From Gammaproteobacteria bacterium (GTDB lineage: Bacteria > Pseudomonadota > Gammaproteobacteria > Natronospirales > DASSBR01), in contig DASSNT010000032.1 of NCBI GenBank assembly GCA_035701285.1, positions 2,284 to 66,283 on the forward strand: a stretch of DNA of 64,000 nt, written 5' to 3'. Positions 1-63,966 of the stretch are shown here, piece by piece. Numbering within the stretch: the first letter of the stretch is position 1; every line of letters begins with the position of its first letter. The position numbers and the translations under genes were made by a program. A model generated the notes under the pieces. That model saw only the letters and a list, made by a program, of their open reading frames with translations, was not told where the DNA came from and did no database searches.

Positions 1-1
1 C

Positions 2-94
2 GCAGCAATGGATTGCCCGGTAGGTACAGTGCGTTCGCGGATTTTCCGGGCGCGCGAGGCGATCAGCGGCAGGTTGAAGCCGCTCCTGGAGTGA
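2..94 (+). CDS. rpoE: ECF sigma factor RpoE/AlgU, C-terminal fragment (gene begins upstream of the window)
   Basis: Frame-2 translation AAMDCPVGTVRSRIFRAREAISGRLKPLLE* looks like the region 4.2 HTH tail of sigma-E. It is followed by rseA/rseB/degP-like genes in the canonical order. Confidence 0.8.
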   Translation, partial: AAMDCPVGTVRSRIFRAREAISGRLKPLLE

Positions 95-108
95 CGGTGG
101 GTTGAGCC

Positions 109-750
109 ATGACTGAAATGCTGCGTGAACAGTTATCCGCGCTGGCGGACAATGAACTCGAGCACGGCGAAGTGGAGTTGCTGTTGCGCCACTACGCCGG
201 CAACGGCGAGTTGCGCGTGCACTGGAACGCATATCACGTGATCGGCGAGGCGCTTCGTCGCGGGCGCCCACCGCAGGGTGCCTCGCGCATTGCAGATCGG
301 GTTGCCGCTGTTCTGGACCTCGAGACCGACCAGCCCGCCAGCGGGCGCGATCGCACGACGCGGCGCTGGCTGAAAATTCTGCGTCCTGTTGGCGCGGTGG
401 CAGTGGCCGCGTCCGTCGGCGTCGTGGCCGTTCTGGTGGTTCGCGGGGGTCCCGCGCCGGATACTCTCGGTACCATACCGCCGGCCGAAGTCGTGCCGCC
501 ACAGGCGCGCGCACCCCGCATGGGCTTCAATTACGATGCAGTCTCAAGCGTGCGCTGGGATCAGGGCTCGGCACAAGTGCGGCGCGAGTTGAACGAATAT
601 CTGTTCGATCACAACGAGGATGCGCCGACGCTGGGCCGGCAGGGCATGCTTCCCTACGTACATATGGCTACCTTTTTTGCTGCTGAACCGCCCGCGGAAC
701 AGGCTTCGCCGAACGTGCTGGACAAGGCTCGCGAGGGCAAGGGCGAATGA
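109..750 (+). CDS. rseA: Anti-sigma-E factor, RseA/MucA-like
   Basis: 213 aa. N-terminus MLREQLSALADNELE matches the RseA_N anti-sigma domain. One central TM segment (VGAVAVAASVGVVAVLVV). Located directly after rpoE. Confidence 0.8.
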   Translation: MTEMLREQLSALADNELEHGEVELLLRHYAGNGELRVHWNAYHVIGEALRRGRPPQGASRIADRVAAVLDLETDQPASGRDRTTRRWLKILRPVGAVAVAASVGVVAVLVVRGGPAPDTLGTIPPAEVVPPQARAPRMGFNYDAVSSVRWDQGSAQVRRELNEYLFDHNEDAPTLGRQGMLPYVHMATFFAAEPPAEQASPNVLDKAREGKGE

Positions 751-1787
751 GGAGCCGCAACGCCGCAAGCGCCGCGATTTTTTGCTGCGCTCTGCTCGTC
801 GCGCTGCCTGTTTCCGCTGCTGATCATTCCGACCAACCCGTTCCGGTTCTCGACCTGCTGCAACGCATGAACCGGGCGCTGCAGACGCTCGATTACAAGG
901 GCACTTTCGTTTATCTGCATGAAGGCGAACTGGAAGCCATGCACGTTGTGCACCGCGTCGATGAGCGCGGCGGCGAGGAGCGACTGACTTCACTGACCGG
1001 GCCGTTGCGCGAAGTGGTTCGCCGGCACAAGACGGTCGAATGCATTCTGCCGCGCAAGCAGCTGGTCGTCGTGGACGAATACCACGCCGACTCGCGCTTT
1101 CCGATGATCATGCCGGCCGGCTCGGATGCACAGGAACTCGGCAAGTATTACAGCCTGCGCCGCCTGGGCCAGCAGCGCACCGCCGGGCGCGAATGCGTTG
1201 TTGTCGCGGTGCAGCCGAAGGACCAATACCGCTACGGCTACCGGTTGTGGCTGGATTCGAAAACCAATCTGTTGCTGCGCTCCGAATTGATCAACGCCGA
1301 GGGCGACACCATCGAGCGCGTGATGTTCACGCACATCGAGATGCCGCAGCAGATTCCACCCGACGCCGTCAGGCCGACGATCGACAGTTCCGGCTTCGCC
1401 AGGCGGCCTCGAAACGGCGGTTCAGCGCCCGCGGCACCTGGTTCGGGCGTTGCCATCGAGGTCGCAACGCTGCCGCCGGGATTCGCGCTGACAGTCGACG
1501 AATCCCAGCACATCGGCGCGGACGGGCCGCCGGTCCGGCACCTGGTTTTCTCGGACGGGCTTGCGTCGCTTTCGGTCTTTGCCGCGCCGTATACGGCCGG
1601 CAAGGATGTGCTGCACGGTGCGTCCCAGCGCGGGTCGGTGAACGCCTACGGCCGTGTGCTGGAAGGTTACCAGGTGACCGTGGTAGGCGACGTGCCGGCC
1701 GAGACCGTGGAAATGGTTGCGCAGTCGGTGCGCTTAGCGGGCGAGAAGACCCGCGCGGGCGAACGCGGGGCAGCAGACGGGAATTGA
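747..1787 (+). CDS. rseB: Sigma-E regulatory protein RseB/MucB
   Basis: 346 aa. ATGA overlap with rseA. Signal peptide (ALLVALPVSAAD). MucB_RseB-like N-terminal region (LLQRMNRALQTLDYKGTFVYLHEG). Confidence 0.85.
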   Translation: MRSRNAASAAIFCCALLVALPVSAADHSDQPVPVLDLLQRMNRALQTLDYKGTFVYLHEGELEAMHVVHRVDERGGEERLTSLTGPLREVVRRHKTVECILPRKQLVVVDEYHADSRFPMIMPAGSDAQELGKYYSLRRLGQQRTAGRECVVVAVQPKDQYRYGYRLWLDSKTNLLLRSELINAEGDTIERVMFTHIEMPQQIPPDAVRPTIDSSGFARRPRNGGSAPAAPGSGVAIEVATLPPGFALTVDESQHIGADGPPVRHLVFSDGLASLSVFAAPYTAGKDVLHGASQRGSVNAYGRVLEGYQVTVVGDVPAETVEMVAQSVRLAGEKTRAGERGAADGN

Positions 1788-1824
1788 TCGCGGGCGGAAT
1801 TCGATCTTTGGGGGACGGGGCTCG

Positions 1825-3180
1825 GTGAGGACACCATCAATCAGAAGCTTCCGGCACTGCTGCCGGGCCTTGCTTTGCCTGCTCGCGTTCGTCGCCGGTG
1901 CGACCGCGGCCGAATTGCCTGATTTCGCCGCCGTGGCGGCGCAGGCCGCACCCTGGGTCGTCAAGATTAATGCGGAACCGCTCGGCTTCGGACCCGGGCC
2001 GATGGCCCTTCGTCCGCCGCCGCAGGCGAATGAAGACGAAGACGATGCGCTGGGTTCCGGGCTCATCATCAGCTCCGACGGCTATATCCTGACCTGCGCG
2101 CACGTCATTGCCGGCGCCGGCTCGATAGAAGTGACGCTGGCGGACGGCCACCATTACGAAGCGAAGGTGGCCGGCGCGGACCGCGACAGCGACCTGGCGC
2201 TGCTGAAAATTGCGGCGACCGGACTGCCTGCCGCCACTATTGGCAACGCGGCCGCGCTCAAGCCGGGACAGTGGGTGGCCGCCATCGGCGCGCCCTTCGG
2301 GCTGGAGACCTCCATTACCGTGGGCGTGGTCAGCGCGGTCGGACGTCATCTGGCGAGCGAAAAGTACGTCTCGTTTATCCAGTCGGATGTGCCGATCAAT
2401 CCCGGCAGTTCCGGCGGGCCGCTGCTCAACGGCGCCGGTGAAGTGGTCGGCATCAATTCAGAGATCTACAGCCGGACAGGCGAATATACCGGCGTGTCGT
2501 TTGCCGTTCCGATCAACCTGGCACTGAACGTGGTGCGCCAGCTTCGCACTGATGGCGTCGTCAACCGTGGCTGGCTTGGCGTAAGCCTGCGCCAGGTGAC
2601 GCCGACCCTGGCGCAGGCGACCGGGATGGAAATGCCCGTGGGCGCGCTGGTCACACAAATAGTTCACCAGAGCCCGGCCGCGGAATCCGGTTTGCAGGTG
2701 GGCGACATCATTACGCGGTTCAACGGCGAAAGCGTCATGGCGCCGGATGATCTGCCGCCGCTGGTCGCTTCCGCTGCGATCGGCGAGCCGGCGGTACTGG
2801 CCGTGCTGCGCGATGGGGAGCACAAGCGGCTCAGCGTCACCATCGGCAAACTGGAGCATGAAGCCGACGACTTTGCCCTCGTAACCGACACCAGCCGCAT
2901 CGATCGACTGGGCATGGCGGTGCGGGATCTGTCGCCTGAACAGCGGCGGCGCCTGAACCTGAGCCACGGCGTGCTGGTGCAGTACGTTTCCGGTGCCGCG
3001 CGGGGTGCGGGGATCAAGCCCGGGGATGTGATTTTGCGCGTCGCACACGCGCAGGCCAGGACGGCGGACCAGCTCGATACGCTGGAAAGGAGATTCGAGG
3101 CCGGCCAGTTTGTGCCCGTGCTGGTCCTGCATCAAGATGAGACGCGGTTCGTGGCACTCAAAGTGCCGCCGATGTCGTGA
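1825..3180 (+). CDS. degP: HtrA/DegP/MucD-family periplasmic serine endoprotease
   Basis: 451 aa with a GTG start and signal peptide. Trypsin-like triad context (LTCAHVI, DLALLKI, GSSGGPL) and two PDZ-like regions. Fourth gene of the rpoE operon. Confidence 0.9.
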   Translation: MRTPSIRSFRHCCRALLCLLAFVAGATAAELPDFAAVAAQAAPWVVKINAEPLGFGPGPMALRPPPQANEDEDDALGSGLIISSDGYILTCAHVIAGAGSIEVTLADGHHYEAKVAGADRDSDLALLKIAATGLPAATIGNAAALKPGQWVAAIGAPFGLETSITVGVVSAVGRHLASEKYVSFIQSDVPINPGSSGGPLLNGAGEVVGINSEIYSRTGEYTGVSFAVPINLALNVVRQLRTDGVVNRGWLGVSLRQVTPTLAQATGMEMPVGALVTQIVHQSPAAESGLQVGDIITRFNGESVMAPDDLPPLVASAAIGEPAVLAVLRDGEHKRLSVTIGKLEHEADDFALVTDTSRIDRLGMAVRDLSPEQRRRLNLSHGVLVQYVSGAARGAGIKPGDVILRVAHAQARTADQLDTLERRFEAGQFVPVLVLHQDETRFVALKVPPMS

Positions 3181-3422
3181 AAGCGCCGCTGACGCTCTAC
3201 AGCCGCGCCGGCTGTCATTTGTGCGACGCGATGCTCGCTGAAGTGTCCGCATTCTGCGCGGGCCGCCCGGTTGAACTGGACGTCGTTGACGTCGATTCTT
3301 CGCCCGATCTGATCAGCCGCTACGGCCTGAAAGTGCCGGTGCTGGTCGGCACCGATGGCGAACTGTGCCACGGGCGGCTCGACGACGAGGCATTGGCAGA
3401 TTACCTGTGGGCGTTCCAATAG
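3177..3422 (+). CDS. Glutaredoxin-like small protein (DUF836-type)
   Basis: 81 aa. CHLC redox motif in LTLYSRAGCHLCDAM. 4-nt overlap with the degP stop. Confidence 0.7.
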   Translation: MKAPLTLYSRAGCHLCDAMLAEVSAFCAGRPVELDVVDVDSSPDLISRYGLKVPVLVGTDGELCHGRLDDEALADYLWAFQ

Positions 3423-3518
3423 GGCGCTTGCTTTTTACCCCGGACGGACGCGTCGCCAGCCGCGGGGCGCCGGCGCATCGTGTAAAATAGCCTCCTTTTG
3501 CCCGGCAAGCTCTCCTCT

Positions 3519-5309
3519 ATGGAGCACATCAGAAATTTCTCCATCATCGCCCATATCGACCACGGCAAATCCACCCTGGCGGATCGCTTTATCGAAATCT
3601 GCGGCGCCCTGACTGATCGGGAGATGGCGTCGCAAGTGCTGGATACAATGGAGCTCGAGCGCGAGCGCGGCATCACGATCAAGGCGCAGAGCGTATCGCT
3701 CGATTACGTCGCAAGGGACGGCAAGACCTATCGTCTCAATTTTATCGACACGCCCGGCCACGTCGACTTTTCCTACGAAGTCTCCCGCTCGCTCACCGCC
3801 TGCGAAGGTGCGCTGCTCGTGGTCGATGCGGCCCAGGGCGTCGAGGCGCAGAGCGTCGCCAACTGCTACACGGCGATCGACGAGGGGCTGGAAGTGGTGC
3901 CGGTGCTGAACAAGATCGATCTGCCGGCGGCCGAACCGGATCGCGTCATCGCTGAAATCGAGGATGTTATCGGCATCGAAGCGCGCGACGCGGTGCGGGT
4001 CAGCGCGAAGACGGGCGAAGGCGTGCGCGAGTTGCTCGAACAGCTCGTGCAGCGCATTCCGCCGCCGCGCGGCGATCGCGAGGCGCCGCTGCAGGCGCTG
4101 ATCATTGATTCGTGGTTCGACAAGTTCGTCGGCGTCATTTCGCTGGTGCGCGTGATGAACGGCCGTATCGAGCCGCGCCAGAAGGTGCAGGTCATGTCCA
4201 CCGGTCGCACCCACCAGGTCGATCGAGTCGGCGCCTTCCGGCCTAAGATGACCGATTCCCGGGCGCTGGAAGCCGGCGACGTCGGCTTCGTGATTGCCGG
4301 CATAAAGGAAATCGACGGCGCGCCGGTCGGCGACACGATCACCGCGGCGGACCGGCCTTGCGCCAAGCCGTGGCCGGGCTTCAAACAGGTGCAGCCGCGC
4401 GTCTTCGCCGGTCTTTTTCCGGTACGCGCCGACGACTACGAAGCGTTCCGGGAAGCGCTGCAAAAGCTGCGCCTGAACGACGCAGCGCTGTATTTCGAAC
4501 CGGAAACGTCGACGGCCCTGGGCTTCGGTTTTCGCTGCGGCTTTCTCGGCATGCTGCACATGGAGATCGTTCAGGAACGACTCGAGCGCGAGTACGAACT
4601 CGACCTGATCACGACCGCGCCGACGGTGATTTACGAGGTGCAAATCACGGCGGGCGAGACGCTTGCGGTCGACAACCCGTCGAAGCTGCCGCCGCCGAAC
4701 GAAATCGAAGAAATCCGCGAGCCGATCATCGAGGCGAACATTCTCGTGCCGCAGCAGCACCTCGGCGCCGTGATAATGCTGTGCGAAGAAAAGCGGGGCG
4801 TGCAGAAGCGGATGCACTATACCGGCTCCCAGGTGTCGCTGGTTTACGAACTGCCGTTGTCGGAAATCGTGCTGGACTTCTTCGACCGGTTGAAATCGGT
4901 CAGCCGCGGCTTCGCGTCTTTCGATTATCATTTCACTCGTTTCCAGGCCGCGCCGCTGGTGCGCCTCGACGTGATGATCAACGGCGACCGGGTGGACGCG
5001 CTGGCGATCATTGTCCACCGCGAGGAGGCCTACGCGCGCGGGCGCACGCTGACAGAGAAGATGCAGGAGATCATTCCGCGGCAGATGTTTGAAGTCGCGA
5101 TCCAGGCGGCGATCGGGAATCACATTATTGCCCGCTCGACCGTCAAGGCGCTGCGAAAAAATGTGACTGCCAAGTGTTATGGTGGCGACATCACCCGCAA
5201 GCGGAAACTGCTCGAAAAGCAGAAAGCGGGCAAGAAGCGCATGAAGCAACTGGGCTCGGTGGAAATTCCGCAGGAAGCCTTCCTGGCCGTGCTGCGCGTC
5301 GAAAAATAA
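3519..5309 (+). CDS. lepA: Elongation factor 4 (LepA)
   Basis: [31 protein letters not shown] and NKID GTPase motifs, with full-length similarity to LepA. The start was moved from the TTG at 3498 to the ATG at 3519 to match the conserved N-terminus. Confidence 0.95.
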
Positions 5310-5325
5310 CAGGAGATAAGACTCG

Positions 5326-6153
5326 ATGAGTCTGAGTTACATTTTTGCCCTGATCCTGGTGCTTGGCACCTGCATAACCGGCGTCATCTGGCTGGTCGAC
5401 CGACTCGCTTTTGCGCCGAAGCGGCGGGCCAGACTGGAAGCCGCTCGCAAAGAAGAAGGGGCGGAGGCCGAGGCCGAGACCGAGGCCGATAACAAGCCGG
5501 CCGACCCGTTGCTGGTCGATTACGCGCGCTCGTTTTTTCCGGTGTTTCTGATCGTGCTGATCGTGCGCGCGTTTATCGTCGAGCCTTTCCATATTCCGTC
5601 CGGATCGATGATTCCGACGCTGCTGGTCGGCGACTTCGTGCTGGTCAACAAGTTTTCGTACGGGCTTCGCATGCCGTTGTCACACTGGGAGTTTGTCGAT
5701 TTCGGAGATCCGCAGCGCGGCGATGTGGTCGTCTTCCGGCCACCCTGGCAGCCGGACCAGACCTGGATCAAGCGTATCATCGGCCTGCCCGGTGACCATA
5801 TCGTCTATCGCAACGAAACGCTTTACATCAACGGCAATCGCATCAGCGACACGCCGCTCGGCTGGTATTCCGGTCCGACTGTCGCGGAAGCACGGGTGAG
5901 CGTCGAGCATCTGGGCGACGACGATCATAAAATTCTGACGATGCCGAACGTGCCCAGCAAGGAAGGCAGCTGGACAGTGCCGCCGAATGAATACTTCGTG
6001 ATGGGCGACAACCGCGACAACAGCGAGGACAGCCGCTATATGGGATTCGTGCCGGAGAAGGCAATGGTCGGCAAGGCGTTCTTCATCTGGATGAACTGGG
6101 ACGGCTTTCCGTCCATGCCGATGTGGAGCCGTATCGGTAACGCAATAAACTGA
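5326..6153 (+). CDS. lepB: Signal peptidase I
   Basis: 275 aa. SGSMIPTL (catalytic Ser box), KRIIGLPGD (Lys box) and GDNRDNSEDSRY. Follows lepA. Confidence 0.95.
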   Translation: MSLSYIFALILVLGTCITGVIWLVDRLAFAPKRRARLEAARKEEGAEAEAETEADNKPADPLLVDYARSFFPVFLIVLIVRAFIVEPFHIPSGSMIPTLLVGDFVLVNKFSYGLRMPLSHWEFVDFGDPQRGDVVVFRPPWQPDQTWIKRIIGLPGDHIVYRNETLYINGNRISDTPLGWYSGPTVAEARVSVEHLGDDDHKILTMPNVPSKEGSWTVPPNEYFVMGDNRDNSEDSRYMGFVPEKAMVGKAFFIWMNWDGFPSMPMWSRIGNAIN

Positions 6154-21896: not shown

Positions 21897-21910
21897 CAGG
21901 TTATCGTAGG

Positions 21911-21987
21911 GGCGGCGGTGTGGGGACTTCTTTCAGGGACGGCATCCTGCCTCACACAGCCCTGAAAGAAGTCCCCACACCACCGCC
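21911..21987 (+). repeat. REP-like hairpin element, copy A (short form); probable hutG terminator or stabiliser
   Basis: 28-nt arms GGCGGCGGTGTGGGGACTTCTTTCAGGG and CCCTGAAAGAAGTCCCCACACCACCGCC (1 mismatch) around the 21-nt loop ACGGCATCCTGCCTCACACAG. The loop matches the distal part of copies B and C. Confidence 0.75.
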
Positions 21988-22004
21988 TCAGCCGTTATAG
22001 TTTT

Positions 22005-22142
22005 CCCGAATCCCCGAATCCCCGAATCCCCGAATCCCCGAATCCCCGAATCCCCGAATCCCCGAATCCCCGAATCCCGAATCCCGAATCCCGAATCCCG
22101 AATCCCGAATCCCGAATCCCGAATCCCGAATCCCGAATCCCG
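22005..22142. repeat. Tandem micro/minisatellite: 1 x CCCGAAT, 8 x CCCCGAAT, 9 x CCCGAAT, plus a partial unit
   Basis: Counted directly. Octamers occupy 22012-22075 and heptamers 22076-22138. The array ends 3 nt from the stop codon of the minus-strand methyltransferase gene. Confidence 0.95.
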
Positions 22143-22145
22143 TTC

Positions 22146-23033
22146 TTACTCCGGCTTCACGAACTTCAACGTCATCCGGTCGCTTTCGCCAATGTGGTCA
22201 AACACCGGCGGCACGATTTCTCCGATCCTCTTCATCATTTCGACCATGCGCTTGTTCTCGTCCGTTTCTTCGGGCAGCTTCGGCGCATGCGCGATGGCGC
22301 GGCTCGGCGGCAGCAGGTGAATGCTCATCGTGCGCGGATCGGCCGGGTTGGCATTGACGCGGGAGACCGCCGCCAGCTTGAAGCCGACATCCTGCGCCAG
22401 ATTGATGACGTAGGCTTCAGGCAGCCGGTGCAGCTTGCTGGCGTCTTCCGCCGCGTCGGTGTTGGGGTTGGCGCGATGCGCGACGACGCCGAAAACGCCA
22501 CCCGGCTTGAGCGCCTTGTAAGCCGCTTGAAACACTGATTTCAGCGTCCCTTCCGCTTGCCAATCGTGCGCGTTGCGGAAGGTCAGCACCATGTCGACGC
22601 TATTGGCCGGTGCGAGATCGGTCTGCTCGGGCGGCAGGAAAGATACGACCTTGACCTTGCCGTAGGCATCGGAATTGTCTTTGAGCTTCTGGCGGTAGCT
22701 TTTGGCCATTCGGCGCAGGAACTCGCTTTCGCTGTCGAGCGGCGGCGCGGCGGCGATGAGCTCGCCCCCGTCCTTGAGGTACGGGGCGAGGATTTCCGTG
22801 TACCAGCCGCCGCCCGGCTGCAGTTCGACCACCGTCATGTCCGGCTTCAGGCCGAAGAATTCGAGCGTCTGGTGCGGGTGGCGGTATTTGTCGCGCAGCT
22901 TGTGCTCGGCGCTGCGCTGCGGGCCCTGGATCACGTCGGACAGGGCGTCGGGCTGGTAGTATTGCTGTGCCGATGCGAGTTCCGGAATGAATGCCAGTGA
23001 AAGCATCGCAAGCAGGGACAGGGCAATTTTCAT
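22146..23033 (-). CDS. Class I SAM-dependent methyltransferase-fold protein with an N-terminal signal peptide
   Basis: 295 aa. Signal peptide MKIALSLLAMLSLAFIPELASA. Motif-I-like VVELQPGGGWYTEIL. Confidence 0.7.
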   Translation of the reverse strand: MKIALSLLAMLSLAFIPELASAQQYYQPDALSDVIQGPQRSAEHKLRDKYRHPHQTLEFFGLKPDMTVVELQPGGGWYTEILAPYLKDGGELIAAAPPLDSESEFLRRMAKSYRQKLKDNSDAYGKVKVVSFLPPEQTDLAPANSVDMVLTFRNAHDWQAEGTLKSVFQAAYKALKPGGVFGVVAHRANPNTDAAEDASKLHRLPEAYVINLAQDVGFKLAAVSRVNANPADPRTMSIHLLPPSRAIAHAPKLPEETDENKRMVEMMKRIGEIVPPVFDHIGESDRMTLKFVKPE

Positions 23034-23155
23034 TGCGACCTCCTTGTTGTCGAACCGGGCGATCCGGCTCGGATTTGGGCGTGGTCTATGTCAAAATACA
23101 CTGTTTTTGCCTGCCGGCAAATCCGGCGAGCCTTCTTTCGCTTGACGATAATTCA

Positions 23156-34036: not shown

Positions 34037-34770
34037 GTGCCTCACGCGCCCGAACAGCTCGCACTCGGTGTCGGCCTGTCGTCGGGCAGCACCTTCGCGG
34101 ATTTCCATGGTGGTGCCCAGCCTGAAGCGTTGGCGCTCGCCGAACGGCTGGCGCTGCGCACCGATTATCCGATCGCGTGCCTGTGGGGGCCGCCGGAAAC
34201 CGGCAAGACGCATCTCCTTCAGGCCGCCTGTCGCGCCGCCATCGGCGCCGGCCGGACCGCCGCCTATTTGCCGCTGATTGAGTCGAGCTATCTCGACCCT
34301 GATCTGCTCAAGGGCTGGGAACGCTTCGAACTGATTTGTGTCGACGACGTGGGCCAGGTTGCGGGGCAGGTGCGCTGGGAAACAGCGCTGTTCACGCTGT
34401 TCAACATGCTGCACGAATCGGGAGGTACGCTGCTCGCGGCCGCCAGAACACCGCCGGCAGGCAGCGACTGGGCGCTGCCCGATTGGCAATCGCGGCTGGC
34501 CTGGGGGCCCGTCGTCAAGCTCACGTCGATGAGCGACGAGGCGCGGCTGGCCGTGCTGCAGCTTCGGGCCTCGCGGCGCGGGCTGAAGCTGCCGGAAGAG
34601 GTGGCGCGTTTCCTGTTGCATCACGCGCCGCGCGACATGCACTCATTGATGCAGGTGCTCGACCGGCTCGATCATGCCTCACTCGCGTTGCAGCGGCGGT
34701 TGACGATACCGTTGGTGAAGCAGGTGTTGGAACGGGATTCGGGGTTCGGGGCTCGGGATTCGAAGATCAC

Positions 34771-52200: not shown

Positions 52201-53547
52201 GTGGCCTTTTCTTTTCTGAATGGCTATGCCAACGATGCGCCCGTCGCCTGGCACGATGGGCGCGCTGTCGGGCGGCACGAGTTTGCGGCCGACGTGGCGG
52301 CGCTTCGAGCGCGTTTGCCGGTTGCCCGGTACCTGATCAACCTTTGCGACAACCGCTATGCCTTTCTGACGGCGTTCGCCGCGGCGCTGGCAGACCGGCG
52401 CATTACGCTGCTGCCGCCGGATGCCGGCGATGCAGGCCTGCTGGGTCTTTGCCGGCAGTACGAAGCCGCCGCCGTTGTTTCCGATCGGTCGCTGCCGTCG
52501 CTGCCGGTCCCGGTTTGTCAGTGGCGCCGCGCTGGCGGCGACAGTGGGAAAGCGAATGCCGTCCCGGCATCGTTTTCATCCGACCAGACGGCCGTGGTCG
52601 TACATACCTCCGGGAGTACCGGCGCGCCGCAGCCGCACATCAAGACATGGGGCGCGCTGGTGCGGCGCGCGCGTGCTGTGGGAGCGCGATTGGCACTCAA
52701 AGAGAGCCGCATCGCCGCAGTTGTAGCCACCGTGCCTTCCCAGCACATGTACGGCATCGAAAACGCGATCATGCTGCCGCTGCAGCATGGACTCGCGGTG
52801 CATGGCGAGCGGCCGCTGTTTCCGGCCGATGTGGCTGCCGCCCTCGACAAGCCGTCCCTGCTGGTGACCACGCCAATTCACCTGCGGGCTTTTACTGCGG
52901 CCGGGGTCGGTTGCACAGGCGTACGATTGATTTTGTCGTCGACGGCACCGCTCGCGATCGAGCAGGCGCGACGGGCGGAAGATTCCCTGGGCGCGCCCGT
53001 TGTCGAAATATATGGCAGCACTGAAACCGGTGTCGTCGCCACCCGGCGCACCAGCAGCGCCGATGAATGGCGCCTGCTCGAGTCTTTGCGGCTGCGGACG
53101 GAGTGCGGCGCGGTGCTCCTCGACGACGGTGGAGCCGATGTTGTCGTGGAGCTGCACGACTGCATCGAACTGCTCGGTGACGGCCGGTTCCGGCTGGGGC
53201 CGCGCGCGCAGGACATCGTCAAAGTGGCCGGCAAACGCGCTTCGCTCGCGGCGCTCACCGAGTCGTTGTGCGCCATCGCGGGGGTCGAGGACGCGGCATT
53301 CCTTGCGCCACACGAGCATGACGAGGCCGCATCGCGGCTGATTGCGTTCGTTGTTGCCCCACGCTGCAGTGAAGCGGAAATTGCCGCAAAGCTGCGGGCG
53401 CGTATCGACCCGATATTCCTGCCGCGACCGCTGGTCAAGGTCGAGGCACTGCCGCGCAATGCCACCGGAAAGCTTCCGCGCGAAGCGCTCCAGGAGCTGT
53501 GGGAAACGATTGCGTCAGGATGGACGCGTAGCTCAGATGCCGTCTGA
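52201..53547 (+). CDS. Adenylate-forming (ANL) acyl/aryl-ACP ligase
   Basis: 448 aa with a GTG start 2 nt after the ACP stop. Motifs HTSGSTGAPQ, YGSTETG, VKVAGKR and PRNATGKLPR. Confidence 0.85.
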   Translation: MAFSFLNGYANDAPVAWHDGRAVGRHEFAADVAALRARLPVARYLINLCDNRYAFLTAFAAALADRRITLLPPDAGDAGLLGLCRQYEAAAVVSDRSLPSLPVPVCQWRRAGGDSGKANAVPASFSSDQTAVVVHTSGSTGAPQPHIKTWGALVRRARAVGARLALKESRIAAVVATVPSQHMYGIENAIMLPLQHGLAVHGERPLFPADVAAALDKPSLLVTTPIHLRAFTAAGVGCTGVRLILSSTAPLAIEQARRAEDSLGAPVVEIYGSTETGVVATRRTSSADEWRLLESLRLRTECGAVLLDDGGADVVVELHDCIELLGDGRFRLGPRAQDIVKVAGKRASLAALTESLCAIAGVEDAAFLAPHEHDEAASRLIAFVVAPRCSEAEIAAKLRARIDPIFLPRPLVKVEALPRNATGKLPREALQELWETIASGWTRSSDAV

Positions 53548-53571
53548 CAAGCGCCGTCTTCCAGGTGGCAG

Positions 53572-54747
53572 ATGACGCCGATATCCGTCAGCGCATACAC
53601 CGCTACCAACGCCGCCGGAACCGGCCGCGCGGCGCTGCTGAATGCCCTGGTTGAGCGACGCTCCGGGCTGGCGCCGCTGCGGGAATACTCGGATCTGGAA
53701 GCATTCGTCGGCGAAATGGCCGGTCTTGATGCCATGCCGGTCGCGGCGGAGTTCGCGGAATACGACTGCCGCAATCACCGCCTCGCGCAACTGGCGCTGG
53801 ATCAGGACGGGTTTCGCGCGGCCGTGGCTCGCGCCGCCGCGCGCCACGGGGGCGGGCGCGTCGCGGTCGTCATGGCAACCAGCACGTCGGGTATCCGCGA
53901 GACCGAGGACGCCTACGACTATATGGCGGCGCAGGGGCGGCTGCCGGACGACTTTTGTTTCGACACCACGCACAGCATTCATTCGCTGGGGGAATTCGTG
54001 CGCCTGGCGTTACGCCTGGCCGGGCCGGCTTTCACGATCTCGACCGCCTGTTCGTCAAGCGCGAAAGTCTTCGCCAGCGCCGCGCGTCTGATCGCCGCCG
54101 GTGTCGTTGATGCAGCGGTGGTCGGCGGCGTCGACACGCTGTGCCGTAATACCTTGTACGGCTTCAATTCACTGCAACTGGTGTCGCGCGAGCCGTGCCG
54201 GCCGTGCGATCGTGATCGCGACGGCATCAGCATCGGCGAGGGAGCAGGCTTCGCCTTGCTGGAACGCGGGGATGCCGACGGCTTGCGGCTCATCGGCTAT
54301 GGCGAAAGCAGCGACGCCTGGCATATGTCCGCGCCGCATCCAAATGGACGCGGCGCACAGGCGGCGATGCGCTCCGCTTTGCGGTGCGCCGGCGTCGATG
54401 CTGCCGCAATCGATTACATCAATCTGCACGGCACCGCCAGCATTATCAACGACCGTATCGAAGACAAGGCGGTGGCGGCGGTGTTTGGCGGCACCAGGCC
54501 GTGCAGCTCGACCAAAGGCTGGACCGGACATACCCTCGGCGCCGCCGGCGCGACCGAGGCGGTCATCGCTTGCCTGTGCCTGGAGAACGGACTGGCGCCG
54601 GGCTGCCTGAACTCGGCCAGCGTGGATCCGACGTTCGCCAGCCGGGTGCTGCTGGACAACGACAGTCGGACATTGCGCCGGGTGTTGAGTAACTCGTTGG
54701 GGTTTGCGGGCAACAATTGCAGCCTGATTTTCGAGCGCTGCGGATGA
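53572..54747 (+). CDS. Beta-ketoacyl-ACP synthase (KAS I/II-type KS)
   Basis: 391 aa. Active-site Cys (ISTACSSS), His residues (HMSAPHP, NLHGTAS) and SSTKGWTGHTLGAAG. Confidence 0.9.
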   Translation: MTPISVSAYTATNAAGTGRAALLNALVERRSGLAPLREYSDLEAFVGEMAGLDAMPVAAEFAEYDCRNHRLAQLALDQDGFRAAVARAAARHGGGRVAVVMATSTSGIRETEDAYDYMAAQGRLPDDFCFDTTHSIHSLGEFVRLALRLAGPAFTISTACSSSAKVFASAARLIAAGVVDAAVVGGVDTLCRNTLYGFNSLQLVSREPCRPCDRDRDGISIGEGAGFALLERGDADGLRLIGYGESSDAWHMSAPHPNGRGAQAAMRSALRCAGVDAAAIDYINLHGTASIINDRIEDKAVAAVFGGTRPCSSTKGWTGHTLGAAGATEAVIACLCLENGLAPGCLNSASVDPTFASRVLLDNDSRTLRRVLSNSLGFAGNNCSLIFERCG

Positions 54748-55532
54748 AAGTATGGCTTGAGGGCATCGGCATCTGGGGGCCCGGCATGACCGGCTGGGCC
54801 GGTTGCCGGGCACGGCTGACCTGCGGGTCCGGCAAGCTTGACGATTTCCGGGAACCACCGGCTGCCGTATTGCCGGCGCAGGAACGGCGGCGCAGCACTG
54901 CCAGCGTCCGTCTGGCAGCGGAAGTTGCCGCGCAGGTCTGCGCAGCCGCCGGGCGCGACGCGGCAGATTATGCGACCGTGTCGGCATCGAGCGTCGGCGA
55001 CCTCGCCACGGTAGACGCCATTTGCAGGGCGCTGGTGGCTGATGCGCGGCTGCTGTCGCCCACCCGGTTTCACAATTCGGTGCACAACGCCCCCGGCGGC
55101 TATTGGAGCATCGTGAGCGGTTGCGAGCAGCCGGCCAATGCATTGGCCGCCGGTCCTGCGTCGTTCGCTGCCGGTCTTCTCGAAGCGGCGGTTCAATGCG
55201 CCTTGGAGGCGCGCCCGGTGATGTTGCTGGTTTACGATCTGCCGGGGCCTTCGCCGCTGGCCGAGGCGGCCGGCATCGGCGCCGGCTTTGCAGCGGCATT
55301 AGGGTTGAGTCCCGCGCCCGCTGCCGGCGCGCCGGCATTGGAAATCCGCTATGATGAAAATCAGACGCCGGAGACGGTCATGGAGGACCCGGCGCTTGAA
55401 GCGCTGCGTCGCGGCGCGCCCGGCGCCCGATGCCTGCCGTTGCTGTCGGCAGTCGCAGGCGGCGCAGGCGGCGCCGTGAAGCTGGGCATGGGAGCCGGAA
55501 GCCTGGCCATCACAGTCAGTCCGGCACAATGA
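54744..55532 (+). CDS. KS-like chain-length-factor protein (Ketoacyl-synt_2 type, no active-site Cys)
   Basis: 262 aa. ATGA coupling to the KS gene. Motifs LPAQERRRST, SSVGDLATVDAICRAL and FHNSVHNAPGGYWSI. Confidence 0.75.
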   Translation: MKVWLEGIGIWGPGMTGWAGCRARLTCGSGKLDDFREPPAAVLPAQERRRSTASVRLAAEVAAQVCAAAGRDAADYATVSASSVGDLATVDAICRALVADARLLSPTRFHNSVHNAPGGYWSIVSGCEQPANALAAGPASFAAGLLEAAVQCALEARPVMLLVYDLPGPSPLAEAAGIGAGFAAALGLSPAPAAGAPALEIRYDENQTPETVMEDPALEALRRGAPGARCLPLLSAVAGGAGGAVKLGMGAGSLAITVSPAQ

Positions 55533-55557
55533 AATCATAACGACGCAAGGAAGCAAA

Positions 55558-56295
55558 ATGCCGGTAGCCGACGCCGTTGTAGTGGTGATTCCCGCTTATG
55601 AGGAAGAGGAAACAATAACGTCTGTCGTCGCCGGGGCGCGACAGCAGATTTTGACGGTCATCGTCGTGGACGACGGCTCCACCGACGCAACCGGCGCTCG
55701 CGCTGCTGCGGCGGGTGCAACCGTGCTGACGCACCCGAAGAATCAGGGCAAGGCGGCGGCCTTGCGCAGCGGATTCGACTGGGCGCTCCGTCTGGGGGCG
55801 CGCGCGGTGATCACGCTGGACGGCGACGGACAGCACGATCCGGCGGACATCCCGCGGCTCGTTGATGCCGCGGATCGGCGTCCTGGCGCGCTGATCATCG
55901 GCGCCCGCAGTTCGCGCCGGGAAGGCGCCCCGCGGGCACGGTACTGGGCCAATGGTGTCGCGGATTTCTGGATTTCCCGCGCCGCCGGCTGCCGCATCAG
56001 CGACAGCCAGTCCGGATTCAGGCTATATCCGGAAGCGCTGCTGAGAAGCTGCCGACTCGCGGTAACCAGGGAGAAGAGCTTCGTGTTTGAAAGCGAAATT
56101 TTGATTGACGCGGCGCTCTCCGGCTATCCGGTGGTGGCGGTCCCGGTAGCGAGTCGCTACCCCGTGAACGCGCGCAAGAGTCATTTCCGTCCGGTAGTCG
56201 ACATCAGCCGGATCGTCCGCATGGTCGCCTGGAAGATCGTCTCCGGACGCCACCTGCCCGAACGCGCCTCGGCGCCGAGGTCCGAAACCCGATGA
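55558..56295 (+). CDS. Family 2 glycosyltransferase
   Basis: 245 aa. Motifs VVIPAYEEE, VVDDGSTD and DGDGQHD. No TM segment. Confidence 0.85.
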   Translation: MPVADAVVVVIPAYEEEETITSVVAGARQQILTVIVVDDGSTDATGARAAAAGATVLTHPKNQGKAAALRSGFDWALRLGARAVITLDGDGQHDPADIPRLVDAADRRPGALIIGARSSRREGAPRARYWANGVADFWISRAAGCRISDSQSGFRLYPEALLRSCRLAVTREKSFVFESEILIDAALSGYPVVAVPVASRYPVNARKSHFRPVVDISRIVRMVAWKIVSGRHLPERASAPRSETR

Positions 56296-57521
56296 AAACC
56301 GACATTCTGGTCATTGGCGGCGGCCCCGGCGGCTCGACTGCCGCAACGCTGCTCGCTCGACAGGGCTGGCAGGTCACGCTGCTGGAAAAGGCGCATCATC
56401 CCCGATTTCATATCGGCGAATCGCTGCTGCCGATGAACATGCCGATCCTGCAGGAGCTGGGGGTATTCGATGCCGTCGCGAAGATCGGCGTGCCCAAGCA
56501 TGGCGCCGACTTTGCCGGTCCAACTGACACTTCTTTCAGTACTTATTACTTCCGCGACGCGCTCAGGTGCCGCTTTCCTCACGCATTCCAGGTCAAGCGC
56601 GAGGAATTTGACGAACTGCTGTTCCGTCATGCGGCGGCTAACGGCGTGATTGCACGCGAAGGCGTGCAGGTCGAACAGGTGGCCTGGGAGGCGGACGGGC
56701 GCGCGGTTGCGGAGATCGTGGACGAAGTCGGCAACCGGTCCCGCATCGAGGCGCGCTACGTGGTGGATGCCAGCGGCCGCGATACTCTGCTGGCCAACCA
56801 GTTCAAGCTCAAGCGCCAGAACCCGAAGCACCGCAGCGCGGCGATGTATGCGCATTTTCGCGGCGTGACGGGCCGCAATGGCCAGGACGCGGGCAACATC
56901 GGCATCTATTGGATTGAGCACGGCTGGGGCTGGATGATTCCGCTGCGTAACGGGATCACGAGCGTCGGTTGTGTCTGCTGGCCGGAGTATCTCAAGCAGC
57001 GCCGCGGCATCGCGCAGGACAAGTTCCTGCTGGACACGTTGCGCGCGGTGCCGTCGATGTGGAGCCGACTGGAAAACGCGGAGATGGTGTCGGACGTGAT
57101 GATGGCGGGCAATTATTCCTATGATTGCTCGCAGATCGCCGGCAAGGGCTGGATCATGGTCGGCGATGCCTTTTCCTTTCTTGACCCGGTATTTTCCTCC
57201 GGCGTCTACCTGGCGATGTCGAGCGCACGGCGTGCTGCCGCCGCGGTGGACGCGATTTTGCGCAAGCCGGCCCGCGAAGGGGCTTTGCAGCGGCGCTACG
57301 AGCGCGAGACGCGGAGCGGGCTGAAGAAGTTTTCGTGGTTTATCTATCGGTTTACGACGCCGACGATCCAGAAGCTGTTTAACCAGCCGCGCAATACCTT
57401 GCAAATTCAGCAGGCGGTCACGTCGATGCTCGCCGGAGACGTGTATCGTAACCGGCCGGCTGATCGGCGCTTGCTGTTGTTCAAATTGATTTATCGCCTT
57501 ACCGGGGCTCGTGCCGCTTAG
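56292..57521 (+). CDS. FAD-dependent oxidoreductase, flavin-dependent halogenase-like
   Basis: 409 aa. Motifs GGGPGG, EKAHHPRFHIGESLLP, GWGWMIPL (WxWxIP) and GDAFSFLDPVFSSG. ATGA coupling to the GT gene. Confidence 0.75.
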   Translation: MKTDILVIGGGPGGSTAATLLARQGWQVTLLEKAHHPRFHIGESLLPMNMPILQELGVFDAVAKIGVPKHGADFAGPTDTSFSTYYFRDALRCRFPHAFQVKREEFDELLFRHAAANGVIAREGVQVEQVAWEADGRAVAEIVDEVGNRSRIEARYVVDASGRDTLLANQFKLKRQNPKHRSAAMYAHFRGVTGRNGQDAGNIGIYWIEHGWGWMIPLRNGITSVGCVCWPEYLKQRRGIAQDKFLLDTLRAVPSMWSRLENAEMVSDVMMAGNYSYDCSQIAGKGWIMVGDAFSFLDPVFSSGVYLAMSSARRAAAAVDAILRKPAREGALQRRYERETRSGLKKFSWFIYRFTTPTIQKLFNQPRNTLQIQQAVTSMLAGDVYRNRPADRRLLLFKLIYRLTGARAA

Positions 57522-57538
57522 CGTTTGGTCTCACGCGA

Positions 57539-57650
57539 GAGAGGCGGCGCGGCACCGTCTTCCAGGGACGCCGTGAATACGTCCCTGTAGGCTGCGGTCG
57601 CAGCATCCATGCTGCTCACGCCCCTGGAAGACGGCGCCGCACCGCCTCTC
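57539..57650 (+). repeat. REP-like hairpin element, copy C (long form); probable cassette terminator
   Basis: 29-nt arms GAGAGGCGGCGCGGCACCGTCTTCCAGGG and CCCTGGAAGACGGCGCCGCACCGCCTCTC (2 mismatches) around a 54-nt loop. It begins 18 nt after the halogenase stop. Confidence 0.75.
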
Positions 57651-57725
57651 CGAACCGTTGAGGCCTCATTCGAGCGATCCATATGGGTCTCAAAATCGGC
57701 CGCGACTCGTTGGGGGCATCCCCTG

Positions 57726-57731
57726 TATAAT
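57726..57731 (+). promoter_or_regulatory. Consensus -10 hexamer TATAAT upstream of the IR element and tRNA-Leu(UAG)
   Basis: CCCTGTATAATGGGTGT. The inverted-repeat element starts 5 nt downstream. No good -35 is seen. Confidence 0.4.
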
Positions 57732-57735
57732 GGGT

Positions 57736-57998
57736 GTGGTCTTCCAAGACAATATTTCCGGTTTCAGCGCCCCGGAGAGTCGTCCGGGCAAGGCGCCGAG
57801 CCGAAAGCGTAGCCGCCTACGGTGAGGATTGGCAACGCAGCACGGGCGGCTCTCCGGGGCGCCCGAAGGGAGTTCGCCTGCCGGCCCCTGGCCGCGTTGC
57901 GGCGACTTGACATGGATGGCCATGCCGGCGTCACCGCGCCTTGCCAGGAACCGGCAGGCGAGCTCTGAAATCCGGCAATATTGTCTTGGAAGACCACT
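57736..57998 (+). other. 263-nt element with perfect 21-bp terminal inverted repeats (candidate structured ncRNA or MITE)
   Basis: GTGGTCTTCCAAGACAATATT (57736-57756) is the exact reverse complement of 57978-57998. Pairing continues inward (CCGG, TTTCAG/CTGAAA, CAAGGCGC/GCGCCTTG) around asymmetric bubbles. Confidence 0.6.
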
Positions 57999-58002
57999 TG
58001 CG

Positions 58003-58090
58003 CGAAAGTGGCGGAACTGGTAGACGCGCTGGCTTTAGGTGCCAGTGGGGCGCTCCCCCGTGAGAGTTCGAGTCTCTCCTTTCGCACCAC
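58003..58090 (+). tRNA. tRNA-Leu (anticodon UAG)
   Basis: GCGAAAGTGGCGGAACTGGTAGACGCGCTGGCTTTAGGTGCCAGTGGGGCGCTCCCCCGTGAGAGTTCGAGTCTCTCCTTTCGCACCA folds as a class II cloverleaf. The anticodon loop is TT-TAG-GT. CCA is encoded. Confidence 0.9.
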
Positions 58091-58162
58091 GATTCAGGTC
58101 TTCAATTTTCCTGTCATCATTCATTCTCAACGTTTCCAGAACATCAAAGAGGTAGACCCGGC

Positions 58163-59495
58163 ATGGAGGTTTCAGTCGAATCAACCGGCGCACTTGAGCG
58201 CCGTATGCGGGTGCAGATCCCGTCCGAGCAGGTGGAAAGCGAGGTGGACAAGCGCCTGCAGTCGGTGGGCCAGCGCGCCAAGCTGAAAGGTTTCCGGCCC
58301 GGCAAGGTGCCGATGAAGGTTGTGCGCCAGCAGTATGGCGCGGAAGTGCGCCAGGACGTGGTGCGCGATCTGCTGCAGTCGAGTTGGGTCGATGCGATCA
58401 AGGAGCAGCAACTGGAGCCTGCCGGCGGGCCGAAGATCGACGATATCAGCGCCGAGCCCGGTTCAAACATGGAATATACGGCCATCTTCGAGGTGTATCC
58501 GGAGATCAAGGTCGACAACGTCGACAAACTCAAGGTTTCGCGCCCGGAGGTTGAAATTCAGCCGGCTGACATCGACAGCATGCTTGAGCGCCTGCGCGAG
58601 CAGAATGCGTCCTTCGAGCCGGTTGAGCGGCCGGCAGCCGAGGGCGACCAGGTGAAGGTTGATTTCCACGGCACGAAGGATGGCAAGGCCTTTCCGGGCG
58701 GTCATGGCGAGAACGTCGACGTCGTGCTCGGCGAGGGCCGTATGATTCCGGGCTTCGAGTCCGGTATCGAGGGCATGAGCGCCGGCGAAGAGCGCGACAT
58801 CGAGGTGACTTTCCCGGACGAGTACCCGGTTGAGGACCTGAAGGGCCAGAAGGCCAATTTCCATCTGAAGGCGCACGAGGTGGCCGAGCGCCGGGTGCCG
58901 GGTGCCGGAGATCGATGACGAGTTTGTCAAAAAGTTCGGCATCGAGTCTGGCGGCGTGGACGCGTTGCGCGACAAGATTCGCGACAACATGCAGCGCGAG
59001 CTGGATGAAAATGTCCGCACCAAGTTGAAAAATCAGCTTATGGACCAATTATTCGAAGCTAACCCGGTCGATGTGCCCGCGGCGCTGGTCGAAAACGAGG
59101 TCCAGCGCGTGCGCGAGGACACGCTGCGGCGGATGGGCATCAACGACCCGAAGCAGGCGCCGGACCTGCCGAACGATATGTTCGAGGAGCAGGCCCGCAA
59201 GCGGGTCGGGCTCGGCCTGCTGATCGGCGAGTTGATCAAGCGCGAGGAGATCAAGGCGGACGAGGAGCGCGTGCAGCAGAAGCTTGAAGCGATTACGGCG
59301 AGCTATGGCGAATCGGAACAGATGATTCGCGCCTACCGCGCCAATGCCGATGCAATGCGTCAGGTTGAAAGCCTGGTGCTGGAAGACCAGGTGACGGACT
59401 GGCTGCTGGAGCGCGCTGACGTCACTGCCGAGCCGAGCAGTTTTGCTGCAGTGATGGGGATGGAACCGGCTGCGGCCGAAGAGGAGAAATCATGA
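58163..59495 (+). pseudogene. tig: Trigger factor, interrupted by a frameshift (7-bp tandem duplication at 58893-58906)
   Basis: ORF 58163-58918 carries the N-domain (GFRPGKVP signature) and the FKBP PPIase domain. ORF 58902-59495 (GTG) carries the C-domain. Deleting one GGGTGCC copy gives a continuous ...AERRVPEIDDEFVKKFG... protein of about 441 aa. Confidence 0.85.
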
Positions 59496-60124
59496 GCAAG
59501 TTCGAGAACGGCTTCGAGGGGGGGCGCGCCCAGGGTTTGGTGCCGATGGTGGTCGAGCAGACTGCCCGCGGCGAGCGTGCCTACGACATCTATTCCCGCC
59601 TCCTCAAGGAGCGGCTGATCTTTATTGTCGGGCCGATCGAGGACCACATGGCGAACCTGATCGTGGCCCAGTTGCTGTTCCTCGAGTCGGAGAACCCGGA
59701 CAAGGACATCCAGCTTTACATTAATTCGCCCGGCGGTTCGGTGAGCGCGGGTCTCGCCATTTACGACACCATGCAGTTCATCAAGCCGCAGGTCAGCACG
59801 CTATGCACCGGCATGGCGGCCAGCATGGGCGCGGTGCTGCTGACGGCTGGCGCGGCCGGCAAACGCTACGCGCTGCCCAACTCGCGGGTGATGATTCACC
59901 AGCCTTCGGGCGGCTTTCAGGGCCAGCAGTCGGACGTGGAAATCCATGCCCGCGAGATGCTGCGGGTGCGCGACGCGCTCAACCAGATCATCTCGAAGCA
60001 CACTGGTCAGCCGATCGAACAGGTGCGGTCCGACACCGAGCGCGACCGCTTCATGAGCGGCGAGGACGCCGTCGAGTACGGCCTGATCGACTCGGTGCTG
60101 GAGCAGCGTGCCGCGGCCAAATAA
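59492..60124 (+). CDS. clpP: ATP-dependent Clp protease proteolytic subunit
   Basis: 210 aa. Motifs [29 protein letters not shown] (Ser) and MIHQP (His). Confidence 0.95.
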
Positions 60125-60232
60125 CGCGGCACGACCGCGACCGGTCGTTTGTCGGCGCCAAACGGCTTTGCGCGTCGAGCCTCGCATGCTATACATGACA
60201 TGCGAGCAAATAGCGAGCTAGACACGAGGTAA

Positions 60233-61516
60233 ATGATGAAAGACGACATCCACGGCAAGGGCGACGAAGACGGCAAGTTGCTGTACTGCTCGTTCTGCGG
60301 CAAAAGCCAGCACGAGGTGCGCAAGCTGATCGCCGGCCCGTCGGTGTTCGTATGCGACGAGTGCGTGGAGCTTTGCAACGACATCATCCGCGAGGAGATG
60401 GCCGAGCAGGCGGAGACGGCGCGCTCGAAGTTGCCCAAACCGAAGGAAATCAAGGAAGTTCTCGACGAATACGTCATCGGCCAGGAGAGCGCCAAGCGGG
60501 TGCTGTCGGTCGCGGTGTACAACCATTACAAGCGTCTGGAAGCGCGCAACGGCAAGGATGACGTCGAGCTGTCGAAGAGCAACATCCTGCTGATCGGCCC
60601 GACGGGCTCGGGCAAGACGCTGCTGGCAGAAACGCTGGCGCGCCTCTTGAACGTGCCGTTCACCATTGCCGACGCGACCACGCTGACCGAAGCGGGCTAC
60701 GTCGGCGAAGACGTGGAAAACATCATCCAGAAGCTGCTGCAGAAGTGCGACTACGATGTCGAGAAGGCGCAGACTGGCATCGTCTACCTGGATGAGATCG
60801 ACAAGATTTCACGCAAGTCCGACAACCCCTCCATCACGCGGGACGTGTCGGGCGAGGGCGTGCAGCAGGCGTTGCTGAAGCTGATCGAAGGCACAATCGC
60901 CTCGGTGCCGCCGCAGGGCGGGCGCAAGCATCCGCAGCAGGAATTTCTGCAGGTCGATACCAGCAATATCCTGTTCATCTGCGGCGGCGCGTTCGCTGGG
61001 CTGGACAAGATCATCCGCAACCGCTCGGAAACCAGCGGCATCGGCTTCGTTGCCGAGGTCAAGGGCAAGAGCGAAATCGACAACGTAGGCGACGTGCTGC
61101 GCGGCGTGGAACCGGAAGACCTGATCAAGTTCGGCCTGATTCCGGAATTCGTCGGGCGCCTGCCGGTGGTCGCGACGCTCGACGAGCTGGACGAATCGGC
61201 GCTGGTGCGCATTCTGGTCGAGCCGCGTAACGCGGTGACCAAGCAGTACCGCCGCATGTTCAACATGGAAAATTGCGAACTCGAATTTCGTGAGGATGCG
61301 CTGCGGGCCGCGGCGCGCAAGGCGATGGAACGCAAGACAGGCGCGCGTGGTTTGCGCACGATCCTGGAGCAGGTGCTGCTCGACACGATGTACGAATTGC
61401 CGTCGATGGAGAACGTTTCCAAGGTGGTGATCGACGAAGGCGTGGTCGAAGGCAGCAACGAACCCTACATCGTCTATGAGACGGAGACGCCGCAACTGGC
61501 CGCCTCCGACGATTGA
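60233..61516 (+). CDS. clpX: ATP-dependent Clp protease ATP-binding subunit ClpX
   Basis: 427 aa. Zn-binding domain (CSFCGK...CDEC) and Walker A (GPTGSGKT). Confidence 0.95.
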
Positions 61517-61551
61517 GTGCCCGAAGCAGGACACAGAGAGGCCAAAGCCTA

Positions 61552-63966
<2,415 letters not shown>

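Follow-up and report, generated by a model that had tools for sequence, protein, structure and literature searches.

Does the tig locus of this uncultured gammaproteobacterium still encode trigger factor, and, if its frame is broken, does the break lie in the organism or in its record? Among 15,575 representative genomes, 97.86 % carry tig, almost all of them in one copy (PMC11559001). In the window, that is, the whole 64-kb stretch of DNA that was analysed, the three trigger factor domains are not encoded in a single uninterrupted frame. The locus is a disrupted tig and not an intact member of TIGR00115.

The break coincides with a short tandem repeat. The heptamer GGGTGCC is present twice, head to tail, at 58893-58899 and 58900-58906, as the sequence-only reading had reported. 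The repeat is longer than these two copies: a perfect period-7 tract on the plus strand, GCCGGGT GCCGGGT GCCGG (19 bp, 2.7 copies), occupies 58890-58908. Positions 58880-58925 read GTGGCCGAGC GCCGGGT GCCGGGT GCCGG AGATCGATGACGAG, and the sequence of the duplicated allele across the tract is GCCGGGTGCCGGGTGCCGG. A first-order Markov model predicts 0.02 perfect period-7 tracts of 19 bp or more per 64 kb, while two are observed, the other one being a true microsatellite at 22 kb. One 7-bp unit of the tract is an insertion relative to all seven aligned relatives.

This extra unit changes the reading frame of tig by +1. A premature TGA at 58916-58918 on the plus strand, 10 nt past the tract, ends the first open reading frame (ORF1, 58163-58918, plus strand), which ends ...HEVAERRVPGAGDR, with ...AERRVPGAGDR as its last residues; the predicted product of 251 aa thus consists of native residues 1-246 followed by five out-of-frame residues, GAGDR. 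Deleting one copy in silico restores ...HEVAERRVPEIDDEFVKKFG... and gives a product of 441 aa. The open stretch of the +1 frame begins at 58869, contains a GTG at 58902 and ends with the TGA at 59493-59495. The frame shift ending ORF1 at this TGA, the single protein of about 441 aa obtained on removal of one copy, and the open frame of 197 codons from GTG 58902 to 59495 (MPEIDDEF...) had all been claimed beforehand, and each was recovered in translation.

The three domains of trigger factor are divided two plus one between the resulting frames. ORF1 matches the Pfam domains Trigger_N (residues 1-144, E = 1.2e-43) and FKBP_C (156-230, E = 1.1e-17) and carries the ribosome-binding motif GFRPGKVP, which fits the signature GFRxGxxP of the trigger factor N domain (PMC11559001). 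ORF2 (58902-59495, plus strand, 197 aa from the GTG) matches Trigger_C (E = 5.8e-36); its product would start with fMet in place of Val245 and continue from Pro246 to Ser441 of the intact protein. In the restored protein, PF05697 (1-144), PF00254 (156-230) and PF05698 (263-414) follow one another in this order, and the 441 residues score 461.9 bits against TIGR00115 (cutoff 180.2), spanning profile positions 1-410 of 410. An equivalog-level score is reached only after one 7-bp copy has been removed, as neither ORF is full length as encoded.

Both halves are on record at NCBI. ORF1 is identical to HET7587295.1 ('MAG TPA: trigger factor', 251 aa) and ORF2 to HET7587296.1 ('hypothetical protein VFL45_04345', 197 aa) in the nr database; the two genes follow each other directly on a contig of 86,689 bp from an uncultured gammaproteobacterium. 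The duplication is therefore a property of the source record and did not arise during preparation of the window. Two open reading frames on the minus strand across the site (186 and 172 aa) have a composition that mirrors the coding strand and gave no Pfam match at E ≤ 0.1; they were rejected as genes and are regarded as shadow ORFs of a gene with 63 % GC.

The restored protein was aligned to E. coli trigger factor (1W26) over residues 1-431, with no gap near the junction and with residue numbering that is identical up to about residue 326. Residues F217, P218, Y221 and F233 correspond to the E. coli residues named in PMC6166725; H222 of the E. coli protein is replaced by P222. In E. coli constructs, the PPIase domain comprises residues 148-249, and the substrate-binding domain was made as 113-432 minus 150-246 (PMC6166725). 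With the frames diverging after Pro246, the break thus falls exactly at the junction of the PPIase and substrate-binding domains, which bears out the proposal that it lies at a domain boundary, given that these constructs take 150-246 as the PPIase insert. The companion proposal, that both fragments might fold, is weakened by the same constructs. Since the substrate-binding domain is discontinuous, being made up of residues 113-149 plus 247-432 (PMC6166725), the 197-aa fragment lacks 113-149, part of its own domain, and is incomplete as a domain.

A comparison of tig with related strains, which the sequence-only reading had called for, was carried out next to a search for homologous proteins. 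The protein search returned three proteins of 441 aa, 99-100 % identical, in the Logan assemblies of five SRA runs; the one from SRR31240229 is the restored protein, letter for letter. Among the best 120 homologues, the truncated product is unique to the window's own record; the 251-aa product HET7587295.1 forms a cluster of one member and was found on no contig of the assembly index. At the nucleotide level, the same-strain comparison spans 58060-59895. The contig from SRR31240229 (L009, 1,598 bp) aligns to window positions 58060-59664 with zero mismatches and a single 7-bp gap. Contigs from SRR31240247, SRR31240241 and SRR31240238 have one copy of the unit and differ additionally only by A58911C, while that from SRR26502124 has one copy, A58911C and two further SNPs. 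Two more distant MAG contigs, L014 (91 % identity) and L001 (82 %), have one copy each, so that the single copy is found by alignment in all seven relatives.

The polymorphism at 58911 (A/C, Ile/Leu248, plus strand) lies 3 nt past the tract, with A in the window and in L009 and C in the other relatives. Because both share this rare A, L009 represents the haplotype of the window without the duplication. Position 58911 also varies among neighbouring run accessions (A in SRR31240229; C in SRR31240238, SRR31240241 and SRR31240247), and it is the sole SNP over 1.5-1.8 kb between the window and the contigs of the latter three runs, a single difference, which indicates that strain diversity is very low. 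The Logan contigs of the strain, five in total, all start inside the tRNA-Leu gene upstream of tig, at 58060 or 58064; this presumably marks a branch point of the assembly graph caused by tRNA sequence common to other genomes. The nearest MAGs by protein identity are DASSKQ010000111.1 (GCA_035690225.1; 95 %) and DASSNE010000049.1 (77 %). A search of JGI metagenomes with a pattern allowing an optional 7-bp insert gave zero matches; the organism is not represented there, and the result is silent on allele frequency. Look-ups for the exact products of clpP (210 aa) and clpX (427 and 426 aa) found none on record.

The anatomy of the tract suggests that the second copy most likely arose by replication slippage. 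The intact sequence CGC CGG GTG CCG GAG holds the word GCCGG twice, 7 bp apart, as GCCGG-GT-GCCGG. During replication, a nascent strand misaligned between the two GCCGG words would give GCCGGGT-GCCGGGT-GCCGG. The seven added bases shift the frame by +1 after Pro246 and lead to the 251-aa product ending in GAGDR, which keeps the ribosome-binding and PPIase domains and loses the C-terminal arms, the main substrate-holding region of trigger factor (PMC11559001). The C-terminal 197 codons are probably translated little or not at all, since GTG 58902 lacks a Shine-Dalgarno (SD) sequence. Slippage of 7-8-bp units does occur in this genome, as indicated by a 7-8-bp microsatellite at 22005-22142.

Apart from the duplication, tig shows no further decay, with zero other differences from L009, which suggests that the duplication is very recent. 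Deletion of tig typically has no effect on growth, DnaK and GroEL overlapping with trigger factor in function (PMC11559001). Cells with the allele can therefore survive for some time in a soil population, and across the species the gene is kept intact. A null allele would be tolerable, yet it is expected to be under negative selection, and a single sighting without secondary decay fits such selection. On these grounds we favour, with a probability of roughly 0.62, a real and very recent loss-of-function duplication in tig that is private to one MAG. The sequence-only reading had left the choice between a recent mutation and an artefact; that two-way reading is supported by the occurrence of the single-copy haplotype, with zero mismatches, in another sample.

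The most serious competitor is the second half of that choice, namely that the duplication was introduced by sequencing, library preparation, assembly or consensus calling and that tig of the organism is intact. The duplicated allele occurs in one MAG only, a single-copy and otherwise identical sequence was obtained from an independent run, and the tract is short, GC-rich and repetitive, all of which is as expected for an error; low-coverage errors, moreover, can occur in a MAG consensus. Given a gene present in 97.9 % of representative genomes, a single disrupted copy in one record is a priori suspect. Against this stands the form of the change: a clean and perfect tandem duplication of 7 bp, formed between 5-bp repeats that were already there, has the signature of a mutation and is untypical of Illumina or long-read error.

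The quality of the surrounding assembly argues in the same direction. A frameshift scan of the whole window based on GC3 alone was too noisy without homologues, and frames were instead checked by tblastn of the translated long ORFs from L014 and L001 against the window, a comparison covering about 13 kb. The trigger factor of the relatives maps to frame 2 of the window until 58900 and to frame 3 from 58899. Genes for an acyltransferase, two ketosynthases, a glycosyltransferase, an FAD-dependent halogenase-like enzyme, clpP, clpX and lon each map in a single frame, and over the approximately 10 kb common to the window and L014 tig alone is frame-broken. These one-frame neighbours and the zero mismatches to L009 across 1.6 kb speak against an assembly that is generally error-prone.

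A further argument concerns the assembler itself. The single-copy allele contains no repeated word of at least 12 nt; a de Bruijn graph at k ≥ 27 therefore has no cycle here, and the junction k-mers would then have come from reads, as an assembler of this type cannot add a copy. The SMAG catalogue was built from Illumina reads, assembled per sample with MEGAHIT v1.2.9 at a k-min of 27 and a k-step of 10 (PMC10640626). DASSNE010000049.1 bears an isolate name of this soil catalogue ('SMAG_U1217 k141_951534'); DASSKQ010000111.1, by its neighbouring accession, probably comes from the same catalogue, and from the neighbouring accessions of these sister MAGs we infer that the window's MAG belongs to the same Illumina/MEGAHIT batch. 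To the extent that this assembly method applies, the second copy is more probably a real variant at the level of the molecule than a product of the assembler. The k-mer argument is compatible with a low-coverage error and with an artefact of PCR, both of which are possible. Taken as a whole, an artefact is a plausible but less likely source of the second copy.

Far less probable is a working split trigger factor, in which ORF1 and ORF2 would be made as separate chains, the second by reinitiation at GTG 58902, and would reassemble non-covalently via the 113-149 linker, a segment that packs against the C domain. Several features are suggestive of such an arrangement: the break coincides exactly with the domain boundary between Pro246 and Glu247, the Val-Pro codons are kept in both ORFs next to a legal GTG near the stop, ORF2 read to its end would keep the conserved ATGA coupling to clpP, and the NCBI pipeline called both coding sequences. 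The initiation signal speaks against it. Under a simple model that assumes the canonical 16S 3' end, the anti-SD duplex at GTG 58902 has an energy of -3.8 kcal/mol, which 27 % of random window positions equal or better, compared with -7.1 kcal/mol at the tig ATG (58163), -9.1 at clpP and -6.5 to -7.2 at clpX. The suggestion that translation could restart at this GTG is weakened by the gap between -3.8 kcal/mol and the -6.5 to -9.1 of real starts, and independent initiation at 58902 finds no support.

As the ORF1 stop lies 14 nt downstream of the GTG, only termination-reinitiation could drive it. Translational coupling in bacteria makes reinitiation by terminating ribosomes conceivable. The split is, moreover, not conserved: the identical haplotype exists without the duplication, all relatives are unsplit, and there is one truncated record among the 120 best homologues. 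The placement of the GCCGG repeat sets the position of the break, and its match with the domain boundary may be a coincidence. The annotated 197-aa coding sequence is simply the longest ORF. Were the arrangement real, it would constitute a natural split ribosome-associated chaperone with translational coupling into clpP preserved; the full claim, with the duplicated allele real, kept in a natural population and yielding trigger factor as two reassembling polypeptides, is if anything a shade more improbable still.

Programmed +1 frameshifting before the TGA (e.g. at CGA-UGA-C, in the manner of prfB) to rescue the full-length protein was rejected on codon geometry and lack of conservation. In its favour, the C-terminal part is read in the +1 frame with respect to ORF1, the stop comes within four codons of the tract, and a +1 shift there would swap only EID for GAGDR. 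However, tRNA-Arg sitting on CGA in the P site has no way of re-pairing with GAU, no SD-like stimulator was found upstream, and the site is missing in all relatives including the identical haplotype, so that a conserved recoding signal is lacking and the chance of such a rescue is negligible.

The surroundings of tig are otherwise well preserved. The gene had been placed at the head of a tig-clpP-clpX-lon cluster, and the order tRNA-Leu, tig, clpP, clpX, lon was indeed found, all on the plus strand. A tRNA-Leu with anticodon UAG (58002-58089; ARAGORN; Rfam RF00005, 55.9 bits) lies directly upstream of tig. It is followed downstream of tig by intact clpP (59492-60124; NCBIfam clpP equivalog, 333.8 bits; SD GAGGAG, -9.1 kcal/mol), clpX (60233-61516; NCBIfam clpX, 686-687 bits) and lon, encoding endopeptidase La (61585-63966; NCBIfam PRK10787, 1293 bits), all three full length against the equivalog models. 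The clpX product is 98.8 % identical to that of L014, in one frame throughout.

The end of tig runs 4 nt into clpP, stop and start sharing ATGA (59492-59495), and the same overlap is present in L014 (7323-7326) and in the five Logan contigs of the strain, which suggests that tig and clpP are translationally coupled in this clade. The strong SD GAGGAG of clpP sits within the 3' end of tig. In E. coli, an intergenic gap separates the two genes and clpP has its own promoter. Because of the 4-nt overlap, the premature tig stop, which would leave about 570 nt untranslated ahead of clpP, could lower ClpP expression; clpP nonetheless has a strong SD of its own. Promoter and terminator scans of 57500-61700 gave nothing above chance level, the hits being a single promoter-like site within ORF2 (59025-59052), where chance alone would give 0.7, and a single minus-strand site resembling a terminator. 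Rfam models returned three tRNAs only for the whole window, and no RNA element at or near the duplication.

Upstream of tRNA-Leu and tig, a conserved cluster at 52630-57521 (L014 positions 1-5751) encodes an AMP-binding enzyme, a lipid A-type acyltransferase, two ketosynthase-like proteins, a family 2 glycosyltransferase and the FAD-dependent halogenase-like enzyme, for which the top NCBIfam match is a CmlS-type halogenase, well under its cutoff. By its gene content, the cluster looks like a biosynthetic locus of the aryl-polyene or halogenated-lipid type.

Set beside known systems, the restored product has the same Trigger_N, FKBP_C and Trigger_C architecture as trigger factor in TIGR00115 and 1W26, and tig lies upstream of clpP-clpX-lon as in E. 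coli. It differs from E. coli tig in that the window's gene loses its frame past Pro246 through a 7-bp duplication and in that the tig stop of this clade overlaps the clpP start. The locus also resembles pseudogenes formed by slipped-strand duplication, with a perfect tandem copy bounded by a short direct repeat (GCCGG), a unit length that is not a multiple of three, a stop 10 nt on and no other decay. The resemblance involves no difference in kind; here, the gene affected encodes a near-universal chaperone and the break lies at a domain boundary. Among engineered fragments, ORF1 matches the NP fragment (1-246/247) and the break is at the residue used for PPIase excision (PMC6166725). Unlike the laboratory SBD construct, ORF2 (246-441) is without residues 113-149, and the predicted pieces of the window bear a GAGDR tail and an fMet for Val245. 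N-terminally truncated trigger factor paralogues are likewise natural partial genes, but they are extra copies without the N domain beside a complete gene and are conserved within lineages (PMC11559001), whereas the sole tig copy seen in the window is itself divided, and none of the relatives shares this split.

None of the four readings considered makes the locus a new kind of thing; it is an ordinary private frameshift or an error. If the favoured reading of a real duplication is right, the locus would be a further example of a transient loss-of-function allele in a chaperone gene that is dispensable though near-universal, caught, judging from the zero decay elsewhere in the gene, within a few generations of arising. 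Such a textbook-style repeat-mediated duplication, placed by chance on a domain boundary, would carry little import beyond the record itself. As regards annotation, HET7587295.1 and HET7587296.1 belong together as the two parts of a single frameshifted gene and should be treated accordingly; tools that estimate completeness or count marker genes may arrive at a wrong number for tig in this MAG.

Other repeats in the window were recorded as well. The microsatellite at 22005-22142 is biphasic, with about nine copies of the 8-mer CCCCGAAT followed by about ten copies of the 7-mer CCCGAAT, and its end lies 3 nt short of the stop codon of an ORF on the minus strand (22146-23090). At 138 bp it is slightly shorter than the largest MEGAHIT k of 141, and its assembled copy number may be unreliable. 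Immediately upstream, at 21905-21990, inspection by eye showed a long imperfect inverted repeat, GGGGCGGCGGTGTGGGGACTTCTTTCAGGG ... CCCTGAAAGAAGTCCCCACACCACCGCC, a possible terminator or REP-like element whose arms of some 28 bp enclose a loop of roughly 20 nt. At 34733-34762, TRF detected CGGGATT in a degenerate array of 4.3 copies, and this heptamer is the reverse complement of the one at 22 kb, which is thus present at a second locus in the opposite orientation.
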